The translations under genes and the position numbers were made by a program. The notes beneath the pieces are model-generated. The model saw nothing but the letters and a program-made list of their open reading frames with translations. It was not told where the DNA came from and made no database searches. DNA of 64,000 nt. Origin: Promethearchaeota archaeon (lineage in GTDB: Archaea; Asgardarchaeota; Lokiarchaeia; Sigyniarchaeales; SOKP01). The stretch covers positions 96,001-160,000 of the forward strand of contig JAEOTZ010000058.1 of the NCBI GenBank assembly GCA_016839585.1. The letters are read 5' to 3'. This document shows, one piece after another, positions 49,469-56,661 of this stretch (positions are counted from its first letter, which is position 1; each line of letters opens with the position of its first letter).

Positions 49469-50203
49469 ATGAACACTATTATGACAGTACGCGAATCAAT
49501 AAATAAAATAAGAGCAAAATTATACAATTTTGCGACAAGCTTTAATGTTGTGAAACTCAGTGCTATGATCGTTATGGTAGGATATATTTTGTTGCTTATA
49601 ATAGGAGTTTTCATAGCAGCATTCCTTGATCCAGACGGATATACTATTTGGGATAACTGGATTTCTGATCTTGGATCATCCAATCATACCCCAGCTCCAT
49701 TTTTATATGATATTGCTTGTATCATAGCAGGATCTATGACTATTCCACTTACATATTTTATGGAACAATTACTTGCTCCATTACCTAAGAGAAATGAGTT
49801 GGGAGAACGATATTACTCTCGATTACGTTTTCGACTGAGTAGTTTTGCCTTCTTATTTAGTATTATCGGGAATTTCGGCTATATTGGGGTAGGTATCTTT
49901 AGTGCAGATCGAGATTACGATTTCTTATCGGTTTTAGGACAAGGACCCCACGGTATTATGTCATATCTCGCTTTTGGTGGATTTACATTTGCGGCGTTTT
50001 TTATGGGCTGGTTAATAGTGTTATATAAAACTAAGATTCCAAAAATTCTGGGAATCTATGGGATATTTGGGCCATTAATTGTTGCTATTCTGAATCTCAT
50101 AGATAGCACTCCATTATTAGAATGGATGCTACTCTTCTCAATACTTCTCTGGATAATCCCTTTATCTTTAACAGTATTCTTGAAATCAGAATTAGCGCCT
50201 TAA
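49469..50203 (+). CDS. DUF998-like membrane protein (tandem paralogue)
   Basis: Collinear similarity with 48643-49374 (GYTIW..ISDLG, APLPKR, RFRL, GIYGI.GP). Confidence 0.7.
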   Translation: MNTIMTVRESINKIRAKLYNFATSFNVVKLSAMIVMVGYILLLIIGVFIAAFLDPDGYTIWDNWISDLGSSNHTPAPFLYDIACIIAGSMTIPLTYFMEQLLAPLPKRNELGERYYSRLRFRLSSFAFLFSIIGNFGYIGVGIFSADRDYDFLSVLGQGPHGIMSYLAFGGFTFAAFFMGWLIVLYKTKIPKILGIYGIFGPLIVAILNLIDSTPLLEWMLLFSILLWIIPLSLTVFLKSELAP

Positions 50204-50318
50204 TAGCATAAATTAGTAAGTTCTCATTTTTTTTATTTTTCTTATGTCTTTACTCTTAGCATCAATTTAGATATCTATAACTCTAATTTATTAAATATAC
50301 TCCAACGATTTTTAATTG

Positions 50319-50424
50319 ATGATAAAGTACATCAAATTTCTGTCCTTATTGTGGAAAACCTTTAGAAAAGGGCGCTAAATTTTGTATTGATTGTGGTCAA
50401 CTTTTTGTAATTCCATTACTTTAA
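50319..50424 (+). pseudogene. Zinc-ribbon remnant or frameshifted miniprotein
   Basis: CPYCGKPLEKGAKFCIDCGQ encoded from 50341, but in-frame TAA at 50323 and no in-frame start; ATG at 50319 is one base out of frame. Confidence 0.45.
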
Positions 50425-50440
50425 ACTTATATTAATTATA

Positions 50441-50471
50441 ATATTAGACTAGATATATCTATGATAGATAT
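50441..50471. promoter_or_regulatory. Palindromic operator candidate upstream of padR-like gene
   Basis: TAGATATATCTA perfect palindrome (50450-50461) overlapping ATATCTA-tga-TAGATAT. Confidence 0.55.
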
Positions 50472-50496
50472 AATATACTCAAAATATTGATTATAA

Positions 50497-51066
50497 ATGA
50501 GTCAAGAGAAGATAGATAAGATTGCTGATGCGATAGAACAATCAATGAAAAAAGGACATATCAGTACTCTAATATTGTTAGCATTAGAAAAAGGTCCCTC
50601 TCATGGCTATAATTTAATGCAAGTAATAAGTGATGGAACATATGGAGTTTGGAATCCGACAGCATCTTCTCTATATCCTCATCTTGCATCATTGACGGAA
50701 AAGGGCTTAATTAAATTTACATCTGAAATGGATGGGAAAAGAGAAAGAAAAGTTTATGAGATTACACCAAAAGGAAGAAGGACATTGAAAAAATTAATTG
50801 AAAAGCAGCAAAATATGCGTAAATCTCTTCTTTCAATGATACTATCTACAATGGGAATTACAGATGATACTATCCCTAACGAGTTTGAAAACTTATTTGG
50901 ACCGGATATAATAGATGATCAAAGTTTGATTGATAAAAGTACTGAAGATAAACTAGAAATCCTTAAAAAACGAAAAGCAGTATTATCAAGTATAATTGAG
51001 AAATTACATAATGTTGTAGGTGAAATTGATTTAAGGATCCAAGATCTAGAAAGATCCAATCCTTAA
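50497..51066 (+). CDS. PadR-family transcriptional regulator
   Basis: ILLAL..GPSHGY, SLYPHL..L..KGLI, RKVYEITPKG. Confidence 0.92.
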   Translation: MSQEKIDKIADAIEQSMKKGHISTLILLALEKGPSHGYNLMQVISDGTYGVWNPTASSLYPHLASLTEKGLIKFTSEMDGKRERKVYEITPKGRRTLKKLIEKQQNMRKSLLSMILSTMGITDDTIPNEFENLFGPDIIDDQSLIDKSTEDKLEILKKRKAVLSSIIEKLHNVVGEIDLRIQDLERSNP

Positions 51067-51169
51067 ATTACCTATTTCTTTTGAAAATTGTTCCTTCTAA
51101 AATGACCCTTTTTAGCTTTAATCCTTGCTTTATGAGTTGGAGCATAAAATTTATATGTCCAAAAAACAT

Positions 51170-51192
51170 ATATTAGATAACGATATATCTAA
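51170..51192. promoter_or_regulatory. Second copy of the operator-like motif upstream of the epimerase gene
   Basis: ATATTAGA-taac-GATATATCTA, versus ATATTAGA-cta-GATATATCTA at 50441. Confidence 0.5.
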
Positions 51193-51244
51193 CTTTTATA
51201 TATATAAATAAAATATTATTTAAATTCTGTTGGAGGAGACATAT

Positions 51245-52357
51245 TTGAAAATTCTATTAACAGGTCCATTTGGAAATGTAGGGTTGAGCACTTTAGAAGA
51301 ATTAATTACTAAGAATTACAATATACGAGTATTTGAAATTAAAAACAAGAAAAATAGAAAAGTAGCTAAAAAATTTGAGAATCAAATTGAGATTATTTGG
51401 GGAGATCTACGTAATTATGAAGATGTTGAGAAAGCTGTAAAAAGTGTTGATGTTATTATTCATTTGGCAGCTATTATACCTCCACTTGCGGATAAACTCC
51501 CTGAATTATCAGAAGAAGTAAATGTAGAAGGGACAAAAAATATAATAAAAACTATAAAAAATCAAATTAATAAACCAAAATTAATTTTTACGTCATCAAT
51601 AGCTGTTTATGGTGACCGCAGGAAAAACCCCATGATCAATCTCACGGATCCTCTTAATCCAAGCAAGGGCGATTATTATTCACTTACTAAAATTAAAGCA
51701 GAAAAGATTATTCGAGAATCAGGTATTGATTTTTCAATTTTTAGGTTAACTTACATCACTTCTGTACATAAACTTGAAATGGATCCTTTGATGTTTCATA
51801 TGCCCTTGGATACTTGTATAGAAATCTGCGATACAAAGGATGTTGGATTAGCTCTAGTTAATGCGATCGAATGTAATGAAGTATGGGGTGGTACATTCCA
51901 TATAGCAGGAGGGGAACAGTGTAGAACTACATATCGAGAATATATTAATGATATGATGGAAATTTTTGGCTTAGGTAGGGATTTTTTACCTGAACAGGCA
52001 TATGAACAAAAAGACTTTCATTGTGGATTTATGGATACAGAAAAGTCTCAGAATCTTTTAAGATACCAAAAACACACCCTCAAAGATTATTATGATGAAG
52101 TAAGAAAGAAAGTTGGGCCAAAGAGAATTTTTATGCCAATGGTTAAATGGGCAATTCGTCTAAACCTTTTGAAACGTTCTGAAGCATATAAAAGAAATAA
52201 ATTCTTTAGAAAAAAGATTGGTGCTTTCACTGTGTCTGAGAATAAATTAATAAGAAAGATCCTTTACAATAATTTTAAAAAGATTGATATACTTGAACAA
52301 AAAGTTTATGAATTAGAAAAAGTTATACAATTTTTAACTGAAAAAGATGAATTTTAG
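51245..52357 (+). CDS. NAD-dependent epimerase/dehydratase (extended SDR)
   Basis: TGPFGNVG, HLAA, TSSIAVYG, YSLTK; start moved to TTG 51245 because GGAGG lies just upstream. Confidence 0.88.
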   Translation: MKILLTGPFGNVGLSTLEELITKNYNIRVFEIKNKKNRKVAKKFENQIEIIWGDLRNYEDVEKAVKSVDVIIHLAAIIPPLADKLPELSEEVNVEGTKNIIKTIKNQINKPKLIFTSSIAVYGDRRKNPMINLTDPLNPSKGDYYSLTKIKAEKIIRESGIDFSIFRLTYITSVHKLEMDPLMFHMPLDTCIEICDTKDVGLALVNAIECNEVWGGTFHIAGGEQCRTTYREYINDMMEIFGLGRDFLPEQAYEQKDFHCGFMDTEKSQNLLRYQKHTLKDYYDEVRKKVGPKRIFMPMVKWAIRLNLLKRSEAYKRNKFFRKKIGAFTVSENKLIRKILYNNFKKIDILEQKVYELEKVIQFLTEKDEF

Positions 52358-52643
52358 ACCTATTTGAACAAAAGGAGCAATATTAAAGGTTTTATTTAGA
52401 CAAATCTTTCAAATGAATCTGTAATTGATTATTTTTTAAAAAATTTTTTTTATTCCTTTTAATTTTCTAAATTAAAATTTTCTGTATGGTATATTTCAAT
52501 TAAAAATATTAAACTGGATAATGGATTTCCCTTATCTTGATAAATGAATAAATTTAAAAATTTAAATACCATAAAGATTGTAATAGTTAAAAATAGAAAT
52601 TATTGAGTTTGAAAGAGTAATTGAGGTGAAAGGGGAAAGGAGA

Positions 52644-54584
52644 ATGAAAGATGAGAATAATCATCGGATTGGATACTATGCTTGTCAGTGAGGTATAAAT
52701 ATTAAAGGTAAAGTGGATTGCGGTAAACTAGTAGAATTTGCTAAAGAGATGGACGATGTCGTCATTTCAAAGAGCCATGCCTTTTTGTGTACTGAAAGTG
52801 GCCAGAATGAAATTATAGAGGATATAAATGAAAAAAAATTAACCAGTATAGTTGCTTCTGCTTGAACACCTCGAACTCACGAACCTATTTATCGAGATTC
52901 AATTGCAAAAACAGATCTAAATCCATACTACTTTCAAATGGTTAATGTAAGAGAACATTGCTCATGGTGCACTGAAAGTAAGGAAGAGGCATTAGAAAAA
53001 GCAAAAATCTTAGTAAGGAGTGGAATCGAGAGAGCTAAAACTTTAGAAGTGGTACCTATTAAAACAGTTCCGGTAGAAAAAGCCACTTTGGTAGTTGGAG
53101 GAGGAATTGCAGGAATGAATGCAGCTTTAGATCTTGCAAATGCAGGAATAAAAGTCTATTTAGTTGAGAGTAAAACGACAATTGGCGGAAGAATGGCTCA
53201 ATTAGATAGAACATTCCCTACAGATGACTGTGCCATATGAATTTGCGGTCCAAAAATGCTAGAAGCCAATAGAAATGAAAATATTGAAATTCTCAGTTAT
53301 GCTGAAGTGAAAAATGTAGAAGGTTGCGTCGGAAACTATGAAATAGCTGTGGAAATGAAACCACACTTCGTAACAAATGACTGTAATGGCTGTGGAGCGT
53401 GTTCAGAAGTTTGTCCTGTTTACACTTCTAACTATTTTGATGAGAATCTTGGAGCTCGTAAAGCTATTGATATTGCTTTTGGTCAAGCTGTACCCTTCTT
53501 ATACGATATTCAAAGAGATTGTTGCGTGGAATGTTTTAGTTGTGTAGAAGCCTGTGAACTAGACGCTATAGATTTTAGTCAAATACCAGAAGAAGTGAAA
53601 TTTAAGGTAGGTACTATCATTATTGCCACGGGGTGGGATATCTATGAGCCTTATGGTGAATATGGCTATGGTGAATTCGATAACGTAATTACACAAGCCC
53701 AATTAGAACGAATGTTGGCACCTAACGGTCCATTAGAAGGCCATGTAAGGAGAATTTCAGATAATAAAAAACCAAAAGAAATTGTATTTATTCAATGTGT
53801 TGGAAGTAGAGATACGGAAAGAACTTATTGTAGTGGCGTATGCTGCATGTTAGCACTTAAGAATGGGAAACTGATAAAAGAAGAATTTCCCGACGCAAAT
53901 ATTACTATTTGTTATATAGATATGCGAACTAACGAAAAAGGTTTTGAAGAATATTATCAACGAGCGAAAAACTCCGATATTCGTATGATTCGAGGTAAAG
54001 TAGGTGAGATATCTGAAGATCTTGAAACTAAGGATGTCAAAATACGCGTATACTCCTCTTTAACGGATGAAATTATTAAAATTGATGCTGATTTAGTTGT
54101 ATTGTCTAGTGCAGCATTACCTTCAAAAGGGACAGAACAAATTGCTAAAGTACTGAATTTGGATGTAGATCGAAATGGATTTCTAACTGAGAGCCATTTT
54201 GGACTTATGCCACAAGAAACAAAGACAAAGGGTATTTTTATTGCCGGCTTTGCTCAAGGACCGAAAGATATTTCATATTCTGTCTCTCAAGCTAGAGCTG
54301 CAGCAAGTAAAGTCGCAGAATTAACAGCTCCAGGAAAAGTAGATATTGAATTAATAACTGCGGAAATAGATAAAGATTATTGTATCTCTTGTAGAAGATG
54401 TGAAAAAGAATGTCCTAAAGGTGCTATTAAAATTGTTGATATCGAAGGAGCTATTGTTGACGAAATAAATTGTGATGGATGTGGTATATGTGCTACTTGC
54501 TGTCCTACGCAGGCTATTGATATACGATATTATAGAGATTATCAATTATATGCTGAAATTGAGGGGATATTAGGAGGTGATTAA
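52644..54584 (+). CDS. hdrA: Selenocysteine-containing heterodisulfide reductase subunit A (646 aa, 3 Sec)
   Basis: One frame from ATG 52644 (RBS upstream) to TAA 54584 with in-frame TGA at 52689 (CQU-GINI), 52863 (SAU-TPRTHE) and 53238 (DCAIU-ICGPKM); the paralogue at 59057 has Cys at all three. Confidence 0.92.
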
Positions 54585-54588
54585 ACAG

Positions 54589-55032
54589 GTGGATAATAAT
54601 TTAAACATACTAATGTTTGCTTGTTTAAAATGAGGATATGGTGCTGCTGATCTAGCGGGTGTGTCACGTTTTAAATATACACCTTCGGTTAAAATAATAA
54701 AGGTACGATGCACTGGACGAGTTGATGTAAAACATATCTTATATGCGGTTAAATCTGGAGCTGATGGTGTTATGGTGGTTGGATGACGACCAGATGAATG
54801 TCAATTTAAGAGTGGAAATTTTAAAGCTCAGACTCATGTTGATTTAGCGAATAGGATCTTAGATCGAAGAGGTTTTGGAAATCAAAGAGTCAATCAATAT
54901 TGGCTGAGTAGTGCTGAATCTGAAAAATTGGTGAAGAGTGTGGAAGATACTCTTGAGAAAATTAGAAAGATTGGACCCAATCCATTAAACTTACAAGAAA
55001 TAAAAGGAGTAAAAAAAGGAAAAATCCATTAA
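54589..55032 (+). CDS. vhuD: Selenocysteine-containing MvhD/VhuD [2Fe-2S] subunit (147 aa, 2 Sec; absent from ORF track)
   Basis: GTG start 8 nt after GGAGGTGA; FACLKU-GYGAADLAG (TGA 54631), RCTGRVD, VVGU-RPDEC (TGA 54784); Cys paralogue at 62162. Confidence 0.92.
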
Positions 55033-55034
55033 CT

Positions 55035-55102
55035 ACTCCCATAGAATGATTCTTATAAAAAAATTATTGTTATAAGAGAACTATCCACGCGATGGAGGGA
55101 GT
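55035..55102 (+). promoter_or_regulatory. Candidate eukaryote-like SECIS element (3' UTR stem-loop)
   Basis: ACUCCC/GGGAGU outer helix, AUAG/CUAU helix, AUGA (55046-49)...GA (55078-79) core, UCUUAUAA/UUAUAAGA upper stem, A-rich apical loop; starts 2 nt after the vhuD stop. Confidence 0.75.
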
Positions 55103-55155
55103 TTTAAAAAATTTATAAAAAAGTTATAAAAAATTATTATAAAATTGAAGGAAAT

Positions 55156-56661
55156 ATGGTTCAAATAATAAATAGTAAATTGTTCGAAAAAATCTCTCCT
55201 AATGATTTGATCGAAGCTACATATAAAGCTTCAGGAAATTTCCAAGTAAGAGCATTTTTTGAAGCTAAAGATGAAATCTTAAAAACAGGCAAATATACAG
55301 AAGAAGAATTCTATGAAATCTTAGATGGAATGGTTGATGCAGAAACTGAACGATACTTAATTTTAAATAAAGTAAAGGGAAAGAAACCTCTTTTTTTAGA
55401 AGAAATTGCTGAAATAATCAAAGAATTTCCTCCTGAAAATGTAATAAGAGATATCATTTACTTAAAGGAACAAGGATATATTGAGGAACATATTGAGATT
55501 AAAACTAAAACTGTTATAAAAAAAATTAAGGGAGAAGAAAAGGAAGTTGAAGAAAAAGAATATTTTTATAGATATCAAGTAAAGGAGCTTCCAGATAATT
55601 TTATTGAACATTATTTTGAACCAATTTCTATTGTATATGATGCTGGTGTATGTTGTCAATGTGGATGGTGTGCTTCTATTTGTCCTGTCAATGCAATTGC
55701 AGTCACTGCAGACACTCTTGAGATAGATGATGAGGTTTGTATGAAGTGTGGATTATGTTATTCTGTTTGTCCTCGTTCCTTTTCAATTGAACAAGCTTTA
55801 TTGAGTATGAAAAAAATTGATAAATCTCTTCAATTTTCTGAAAAGATTAACGGATATCTTAATACATATTCAGCCACAACAACTAAAGATAAGATTAAAA
55901 AAGTACGCCAAGATGGAGGAATAGTAACCTCCTTACTTGAGTATTTATTAAAGAATAAATTAGTTGATGCTATTGTAGCAGTGCAACATTCAAAAGATTT
56001 CTGGAAACCAGAACCTGTTATTGTAGATAATTTAAACGATTTGTATAAAACGGGTGGAACTAAATATGCAAATGCATCGACTTTAGCTATTATAGGTCAA
56101 ACAAAAAATTATAAGAATATAGCTGTTGTTGGAACACCATGTATGATTAATGCAATTGAAAAAAGTAATTTATTTCCAACTAGAGTACCTTTTTTCAACA
56201 ACATTAAATATAAAATTGGGCTTTTTTGCATGGAATCTTTTCCTTATGAAGGTGTGCTTAAACTAATCAAAGAGCAATTTGATAAAGATTTTACGAAAGT
56301 AACAAAGATGGATATAAGCGGTGGAAAATTTATCATTTATTTGGATTCAGGGGAGGATTTAAGAGTCCCCCTTAATAATGTTAAATCCTATGCTCGAGCC
56401 AATTGTCATTATTGTGAAGATTTAACTTCTGATTATGCAGACATTTCTGTAGGCTCAATAGGCTCTCAAGCAGGTTGGTCTTCCGTTATCACTCGTTCAA
56501 AGAAAGGTGAAGAAATTTTCCAAGGAGCTGTTGAAGTAGGTTTAATTGAGTTTCAGAATCTAAAAGATGTTAAACCAGGACTAGGTCTTTTAGAAAGAAT
56601 TGCTGATACTAAAAGAAAAAATTGTAAACCAATTGAATTAATTAAAAATCAAAAAACTTAA
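55156..56661 (+). CDS. FrhB/FdhB-family F420-binding subunit with N-terminal helical/winged-helix extension and 2x[4Fe-4S] domain
   Basis: CCQCGWCASICP, CMKCGLCYSVCP, QDGGIVT, GGTKY, VGTPC, IGLFCM, CHYCED. Confidence 0.9.
   Translation: MVQIINSKLFEKISPNDLIEATYKASGNFQVRAFFEAKDEILKTGKYTEEEFYEILDGMVDAETERYLILNKVKGKKPLFLEEIAEIIKEFPPENVIRDIIYLKEQGYIEEHIEIKTKTVIKKIKGEEKEVEEKEYFYRYQVKELPDNFIEHYFEPISIVYDAGVCCQCGWCASICPVNAIAVTADTLEIDDEVCMKCGLCYSVCPRSFSIEQALLSMKKIDKSLQFSEKINGYLNTYSATTTKDKIKKVRQDGGIVTSLLEYLLKNKLVDAIVAVQHSKDFWKPEPVIVDNLNDLYKTGGTKYANASTLAIIGQTKNYKNIAVVGTPCMINAIEKSNLFPTRVPFFNNIKYKIGLFCMESFPYEGVLKLIKEQFDKDFTKVTKMDISGGKFIIYLDSGEDLRVPLNNVKSYARANCHYCEDLTSDYADISVGSIGSQAGWSSVITRSKKGEEIFQGAVEVGLIEFQNLKDVKPGLGLLERIADTKRKNCKPIELIKNQKT

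Follow-up and report, generated by a model that had tools for sequence, protein, structure and literature searches.

A probable lokiSECIS element behind the hdrA and vhuD genes of an Asgard archaeon lies within a conserved three-way junction

Results

The hdrA–vhuD locus and its Sec codons

The 64-kb stretch of DNA analysed here, hereafter the window, belongs to an Asgard genome of 3.45 Mb that has 29% G+C and is 99% complete. On its + strand lie hdrA (52644–54584; TAA stop at 54582–54584), recognised as heterodisulfide reductase subunit A by its translation, Pfam and a structure match, and vhuD/mvhD of the FlpD family (54589–55032; GTG start at 54589, TAA stop at 55030–55032). An alternative GTG start of hdrA is found at 52626, and the Sec residues of HdrA are numbered from that codon. 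The two genes are separated by 4 nt (ACAG after the hdrA TAA), as the initial annotation had stated; the GGAGGTGA Shine-Dalgarno site of vhuD, upstream of GTG 54589, sits inside hdrA.

Three in-frame UGA codons interrupt hdrA, at 52689 (U22), 52863 (U80) and 53238 (U205), and two interrupt vhuD, at 54631 and 54784; together the five in-frame TGA triplets precede the AUGA motif of the SECIS element described below by 2357 to 262 nt. HdrA carries FAD and Fer4 domains (Pfam) and matches the solved methanogen HdrA chain 9sfi_A from end to end (E 2e-194). In this alignment U22 and U80 face Cys, and U205 faces an X of the chain that is probably Sec. We take residue 205 to be the canonical Sec site. 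VhuD is a full FlpD-family protein (Pfam FlpD, residues 11–133, E 1.7e-43). Judged by sequence, the UGAs of both genes are real Sec codons: those of hdrA because they align to Cys or Sec of the solved HdrA, and those of the locus as a whole because the genome encodes SelB and a tRNA with anticodon UCA.

The SelB gene is located at contig C86:63021-63929 (+). The tRNA-Sec candidate lies 3 kb from it on the same contig (G000 contig C86:59756-59872 (−)), and combines the anticodon UCA with a variable arm that is long and a T-arm region enlarged by an insert of ~33 nt; at 34.6 bits, it is one of the matches of the Rfam tRNA-Sec model that fall under the Rfam cut-off. Aragorn reported only 11 tRNAs in the source genome, with no tRNA-Sec among them, and missed the UCA candidate. 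SBP2 was not found in the source genome, in which L7Ae-family ORFs number only two (125 and 133 aa), and Asgard archaea are described in the literature as having no SBP2. The nearest public vhuD loci are those of Promethearchaeota (Loki-type) MAGs, and DNA of the locus is present in marine-sediment metagenomes.

Downstream, the spacer between the SECIS element and the next gene (window 55103-55158) comprises 53 nt that consist nearly entirely of A and T, includes TTTATAAAAAA-type boxes as well as a ribosome-binding site, GAAGGAAAT, and leads to an frhB-like gene with its ATG at 55156. This gene probably has a promoter of its own, and the hdrA–vhuD message probably ends at or just past the closing helix of the element.

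Anatomy of the SECIS element

The element occupies 55034–55103 (+), and every helix named in the initial annotation, together with the AUGA core and the apical loop, is present in its sequence (Axx below denotes A550xx, and likewise for other bases). P1, which closes the three-way junction on its outer side, pairs ACUCCC (55035–55040) with GGGAGU (55097–55102), which is followed by UUUU; this helix covaries across the family. It adjoins the C helix of the putative kink-turn (helix I), in which AUAG (55041–55044) pairs with CUAU (55081–55084) and G55044–C55081 is the −1b·−1n pair. The stretch 55045–55049 holds the kink-turn loop L1–L3 (A45, A46, U47), G48 (1b) and A49 (2b), such that AUGA corresponds to 55046–55049, 13 nt past the vhuD stop. 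The main stem P2 is formed by 55050–55058 and UUAUAAGAG (55070–55078), with a U50·G78 wobble below 8 Watson-Crick pairs, and is capped by an 11-nt apical loop, AAAAAUUAUUG (55059–55069), that has an A-run at its start and a conserved G at its end. The family consensus for this loop is AAAAAUnnUAG; the usual ending UAG is replaced by UUG in the window element, which places a U at a penultimate position that is mostly A elsewhere. The 3′ core dinucleotide AA (55079–55080) sets A79 (2n) opposite A49 and A80 (1n) opposite G48, in the register given by the family alignment. The 3′ side hairpin P3 (55085–55095) consists of CCA, the loop CGCGA and UGG. The junction is nearly perfect: P1 abuts the C helix and the C helix abuts P3 with no base left unpaired, and only one A separates P3 from P1.

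Two details of the earlier description need correction. The core had been given as AUGA...GA; in the fixed family geometry of AUGA, 9 stem positions, an 11-nt loop and [G/A]A, where U50·G78 joins the 8 Watson-Crick pairs of the main stem as a ninth position, it is AUGA_AA instead. The side hairpin is present, but not as UCCA/UGGA, since U55084 belongs to helix I and the non-overlapping stem is CCA/UGG.

Read as a kink-turn, the sequence would run from G44–C81 through the loop A45 A46 U47 to G48·A80 and A49·A79, which are predicted to form the tandem sheared pairs of the core, and then to U50·G78. Folding of a kink-turn whose 2b·2n pair is A·A may require assistance.

In the minimum free energy (MFE) structure from RNAfold, at −15.9 kcal/mol, P1, the main stem P2 and P3 are all formed. 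With z = −2.0 and 6/200 shuffles folding equally well, this is modest for one sequence, and the support for the fold is comparative rather than a matter of single-sequence energy.

A single element at the 3′ end of the gene pair

Covariance model R1 was built from four other collinear elements of the source genome, with the window element left out; this seed was chosen because MAFFT alignments of all nine own-genome elements misaligned the junction strands. The window element scores 49.4 bits with R1 (E 1e-10) and is its only match in the 64-kb window. With filters off, R1 revealed no second SECIS in hdrA, in vhuD, in the spacer 52358–52643 or elsewhere in 50000–56500, the runner-up reaching 9.8 bits. 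Folding of the 70 nt behind each of the five UGAs and of the upstream spacer gave no stable local structure (z −1.3 to +1.6).

The source genome was also scanned for AUGA followed by a stem of 9 positions, an A-rich loop of 11 nt with a final G, and then GA or AA. Nine elements were found, each directly behind an ORF with an in-frame UGA: four follow hdrA–vhuD pairs, one a solo hdrA, one PrxL (peroxiredoxin-like) and three unnamed small ORFs. R1 recovers 8/9 of them and misses the one on contig C90. All four hdrA–vhuD pairs carry a single element, which is positioned behind vhuD. Among 100 aligned elements of the family, 52 stand behind vhuD and 9 behind a solo hdrA. As such, there appears to be one element per Sec-containing gene unit, at its 3′ end, and sharing within the hdrA–vhuD pair is therefore the economical reading.

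In all likelihood, then, 55034–55103 is a lokiSECIS at the 3′ end of a bicistronic hdrA–vhuD message, in which the two genes would be co-transcribed and the element would act on hdrA as well as on vhuD. That one SECIS would serve five UGAs in two cistrons over ~2.4 kb, as proposed in the initial annotation, is supported by its being the sole element in 50000–56500 and by its published lokiSECIS features; a SECIS dedicated to this hdrA was searched for in the same interval and none was found. It is improbable that the element serves vhuD alone, with the hdrA UGAs read through another signal (an undetected element or a factor only) or with HdrA not made at full length. All four gene pairs carry their one element behind vhuD and the solo hdrA has its own at its stop, the UGAs occupy conserved Cys/Sec sites in an HdrA that aligns end to end with the solved protein, 50000–56500 holds no other lokiSECIS-like element, and neither the upstream spacer nor the sequence that follows any of the UGAs folds stably. 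What favours restriction to vhuD is that recoding at a distance of 2.4 kb, past a stop/start junction, would have no experimentally tested prokaryotic precedent, and that the RNA contigs do not span both genes. These contigs, from two metatranscriptome runs, are short and fragmentary, stem mostly from relatives and are mostly <90% identical; none spans 54584/54589 or the SECIS.

The solo hdrA of the source genome (G000 contig C59, L085:222-2267 (−)) encodes 682 aa with Sec at residues 17 and 201 and is without vhuD. In its own lokiSECIS (L085:159-231 (−)) the UGA of the AUGA core is the stop codon of the gene. At least eight further genomes of the family likewise have a solo hdrA with a SECIS, for instance at L090, L092-L094 and L100.

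Conservation and covariation of the three-way junction

In 8/9 own-genome elements, which had been picked by core pattern alone, the MFE fold comprises the closing helix P1, the SECIS stem P2 and the 3′ side hairpin P3. R1, which includes P1 and P3, finds full-length matches in all 25 sampled genomes of the family (2–9 each) and, in the phylum, weak matches in two families besides; the 100 matches from which a second model was then built gave it clear matches in families f13 (3/3) and f16 (5/5). Loci found by VhuD protein similarity alone likewise have the element directly past the stop, including those of Borrarchaeum, Jordarchaeia and Freyarchaeota MAGs, whose folds contain P2 and P3, and mostly P1 too, at up to ~50% G+C. 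The structure is kept behind other Sec genes, a check that the reading of the initial annotation withstands.

In a model-fitted alignment of the 100 sequences, 91.3% of cells are paired, compared with 66% after shuffling and 35–48% when partners are slid. Two-sided changes occur in every pair of P1, P2 and P3, including all 9 P2 pairs and five core P1 pairs, one position of which is AU in 36 sequences, GC in 33, CG in 15 and UA in 8. The −1b·−1n pair beside the kink-turn loop is G–C in 94/99 and A–U in 5/99, and is never unpaired. An alignment of this kind leans to its model, and the test was redone with 34 vhuD-linked elements that MAFFT had aligned blind to structure. From this second alignment RNAalifold derives P1, P2 and P3 de novo; 87% of its cells are paired versus 65.5% (shuffled) and 30–50% (slid), and compensatory changes are found in 6/7 P1 pairs and 2/3 P3 pairs; the inner P3 pair alone is CG in 13, AU in 8, UA in 6 and UG in 2. 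The sequences are mutually related, such that the shuffle statistics overstate their independence. In a partner-swap test of P1, elements fold at −8.6 kcal/mol with their own flanks, compared with −6.2 for swapped and −4.5 for shuffled flanks, an effect that is real but blunt because many elements have a common CCGAA/UUCGG helix.

Sequence is conserved as well as pairing. AUGA is present in 99/100 aligned elements, and the 3′ core dinucleotide, in a fixed-offset check, is GA in 65/100 and AA in 26/100. P3, of 3–5 bp, belongs to the MFE fold of 94/100 family elements and starts 3–4 nt past the core in 80/94 (4 nt past A1n in the window element). Its loop contains GC in 90/100 and a GNRA-like G[C/U][A/G]A tetranucleotide in 65/100. 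The stop codon falls within a UAGAAUGA motif in ~40% of family elements, which places the 5′ strand of P1 in coding sequence.

We conclude from this sequence anatomy, helix conservation and covariation, which extends across orthologous loci to P1, P2 and P3, that the three-way junction is real and conserved. The alternative that the hairpin is a chance fold of A+T-rich spacer DNA has a vanishingly small likelihood. Its z-score is just −2.0, and in the source genome three-way folds also arise in 16/75 decoy AUGA hairpins and 88/500 shuffled-flank controls; set against these figures are a model match at E 1e-10, ~200 homologous elements behind Sec genes in 25/25 family genomes, and strong covariation. 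On these comparative data we consider a chance fold refuted.

Further genes followed by lokiSECIS elements

Five ORFs of 60–90 aa, at L138:769-951 (−), L175:771-968 (−), L139:259-441 (+), L130:271-501 (−) and L178:422-694 (+), are each followed by a lokiSECIS. They share a membrane helix at the N terminus and a single in-frame UGA, which falls in a conserved GGGU[P/G]xxC-like motif, and have no significant Pfam match (L178 sub-threshold only). The text of Huang et al. 2024 (PMC11227280) lists seven Asgard selenoprotein families, and these ORFs are candidate selenoproteins beyond them. Short SECIS-linked membrane proteins of two helices, whose U falls in an I-G-U-G-like motif, are encoded at L124:830-1039 (−), L158:463-675 (+) and L132:200-382 (+), and SECIS-linked, zinc-ribbon-like CxxC...CxxC peptides of ~40 aa that end in FKU at L165:803-913 (−) and L164:541-669 (+); neither group has a Pfam match above threshold. 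Within the source genome itself, ORFs of 136 aa (L082:519-926 (+), contig C31) and 105 aa (L086:210-524 (+), contig C60) contain an in-frame UGA, belong to no Pfam family and lie directly upstream of a lokiSECIS; relatives of the former accompany SECIS matches of other genomes in 7/100 cases. In two family genomes, a SelD-like ORF with an AIRS_C domain (L126:21-698 (+), L151:32-697 (+)) is followed by a type-I three-way-junction SECIS. Asgard selD is described in the literature as having mainly type II elements.

Discussion

Relation to known SECIS elements

The text of Mariotti et al. 2016 (PMC4989117) describes the lokiSECIS as AUGA, a 9-bp stem, an 11-nt loop whose first five positions are A-rich and whose last is G, and GA (or AA) after the stem. 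It reports that hdrA and vhuD share one such element behind vhuD, probably on a polycistronic mRNA, and that up to six UGAs over ~2 kb are perhaps served by one element. The text of Huang et al. 2024 extends this sharing to 227 Sec-using Asgard MAGs, calls the elements 'type I eSECIS-like' and records an AUGA_AA core variant in hdrA/frhD; that of a 2026 review repeats the shared hdrA–vhuD SECIS. A shared SECIS for this gene pair has therefore been in print since 2016 and is not new, our locus being a further example, and the core variant is likewise already known.

The window element matches the published lokiSECIS geometry, in keeping with the earlier remark that similar elements are reported in Lokiarchaeota. 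AUGA (55046–55049) directly precedes a 9-position stem that starts at 55050; the loop has 11 nt with an A-rich start and a final G; [G/A]A follows the stem (AA at 55079–55080); and a single copy, few nucleotides past the stop, stands behind vhuD for a multi-Sec hdrA and vhuD. It differs in having P3, whose loop carries the conserved GC, and the closing helix P1, both of which are missing from the published texts. Figures and supplements aside, the texts of Mariotti 2016, Huang 2024, Sun 2021, Peiter 2025 and the 2026 review describe a core, an upper stem, an apical loop and a generic lower stem with an internal loop, with no mention of a side hairpin or three-way junction, and that of Huang 2024 states that there are no conserved nucleotides around key regions. 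A full-text literature search for SECIS with "three-way junction" returned nothing relevant. The junction, suspected from the outset to be undescribed, is conserved and covarying and is the sole part that may be new, 'undescribed' being provisional and limited to these texts.

With the type I SECIS of eukaryotes the element shares its 3′ untranslated position, a predicted action at a distance, an AUGA...GA-type core that would form a kink-turn, and unpaired apical A's. The main stem of the window element is shorter and its core has A·A instead of A·G; below the core, eukaryotic elements have helix I and an internal loop, in place of which the window element has a three-way junction. The eukaryotic element is bound by SBP2, whereas the source genome is without SBP2, has two small L7Ae-family genes and would use a polycistronic message. 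Nor do the Rfam SECIS families, proposed earlier as a check with eukaryotic models, match the element: none reaches its gathering score on the window, and on 52000–55400 none matches at E up to 10 (four chance matches only). Vertebrate SELENOP mRNA is similar in that several UGAs are recoded from 3′ elements over a kilobase distance; it is a eukaryotic mRNA with one cistron and two SECIS, in contrast to the one element and two cistrons found here.

Like the Asgard element, the euryarchaeal SECIS (Methanococcales/Methanopyrus) lies 3′ of its gene, and its vhuD version serves two UGAs; AUGA...GAC is also present in methanococcal vhuD elements. In contrast, the GAA_A bulge and G–C clamp of the euryarchaeal SECIS are absent from the window element, and methanogen hdrA has its own SECIS element. 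The vhuD SECIS of a Methanothermococcus okinawensis MAG (L015:3407-3492 (+)) is a weak match to the Loki model (20.9 bits) immediately behind the gene and has a G+C-rich hairpin directly 3′ of its AUGA...GAC core, which hints that the side hairpin is older than the Asgard lineage or was carried along with vhuD.

A structural precedent is the k-junction (Wang, Daldrop, Huang & Lilley 2014, PMC4005666), in which a kink-turn is extended to a three-way junction; TPP riboswitches are an example. In both, the third helix emerges from the non-bulged strand, and A·A at 2b·2n is known in natural kink-turns of such type. In the k-junction, however, the third helix lies directly opposite the loop, whereas in the SECIS family a C helix of 1–4 bp intervenes (4 in the window element). 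Strict identity with a k-junction is ruled out, since this C helix parts the kink from the branch point; the arrangement is instead that of a predicted kink-turn adjoining a three-way junction.

A possible mechanism and the role of P1 and P3

We propose that the folded 70-nt element would recruit SelB, the elongation factor specific for Sec, with Sec-tRNA(UCA), either directly or through an adaptor, given that the genome is without SBP2. Ribosomes at any place on the bicistronic mRNA could then read all five UGAs, 262 to 2357 nt upstream, as Sec, and the UAA stops of both genes, together with the closeness of the SECIS to the vhuD stop, would keep termination normal. In the predicted fold the C helix runs into P1, and the 3′ strand, which is the non-bulged one, gives rise to P3, whose loop contains GCGA. 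The most likely role of P1 and P3 is to keep the kink-turn in its folded state or to add a recognition surface; this could matter here because 2b·2n is A·A and SBP2 is absent. Where the stop codon falls inside UAGAAUGA, a terminating ribosome would need to melt P1 and the C helix, which would fit the proposal, already published, that recoding requires some minimal distance.

More broadly, we suggest tentatively, at somewhat less than even confidence, that the Asgard type-I SECIS is a kink-turn in a three-way junction in which both P1 and the GNRA-like P3 (GCAA/GCGA/GUGA) are required, either to lock the kink-turn without SBP2 or to dock an archaeal SECIS-binding factor, the eukaryotic helix I and internal loop being a remnant after loss of P3. 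The only reported lokiSECIS test found a Loki vhuU.2 element to be inactive in Methanococcus maripaludis (PMC11881835); its reported folding energy of −6.9 kcal/mol suggests that this construct was a bare hairpin.

The main rival for the P1/P3 part, which we consider rather unlikely, places these helices outside the recoding signal, as a module of the 3′ end or of terminator-like kind, for which any helix suffices and which would stabilise the message or shield the SECIS fold from its neighbours. In the window P1 is G+C-rich and followed by UUUU, a run of at least 5 T within 15 nt past P1 is found in 29/100 elements versus 9% of random genomic 18-mers, and eukaryotic SECIS elements function with a plain lower helix. 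Most elements, however, have no T-run, and in another family the architecture is retained at 50% G+C. P3 is kept beyond its pairing, in loop sequence (GC in 90/100) and in its fixed position 3–4 nt past the core (80/94), and a 5′ strand of P1 that is coding, as in the ~40% of elements with the stop codon within UAGAAUGA, would be odd for a terminator.

Significance

A single 3′ signal that would recode five stop codons in two genes is a striking Asgard feature. The junction bears on how archaea read a distant SECIS without SBP2, and this structural point may outweigh the sharing itself. If P1 and P3 belong to the signal, reporter and binding constructs would need ~70 nt rather than ~35, the conserved P3 loop would offer a concrete target for mutagenesis and pull-down, and models that derive the eukaryotic SECIS from that of Asgard archaea would gain a structural intermediate.
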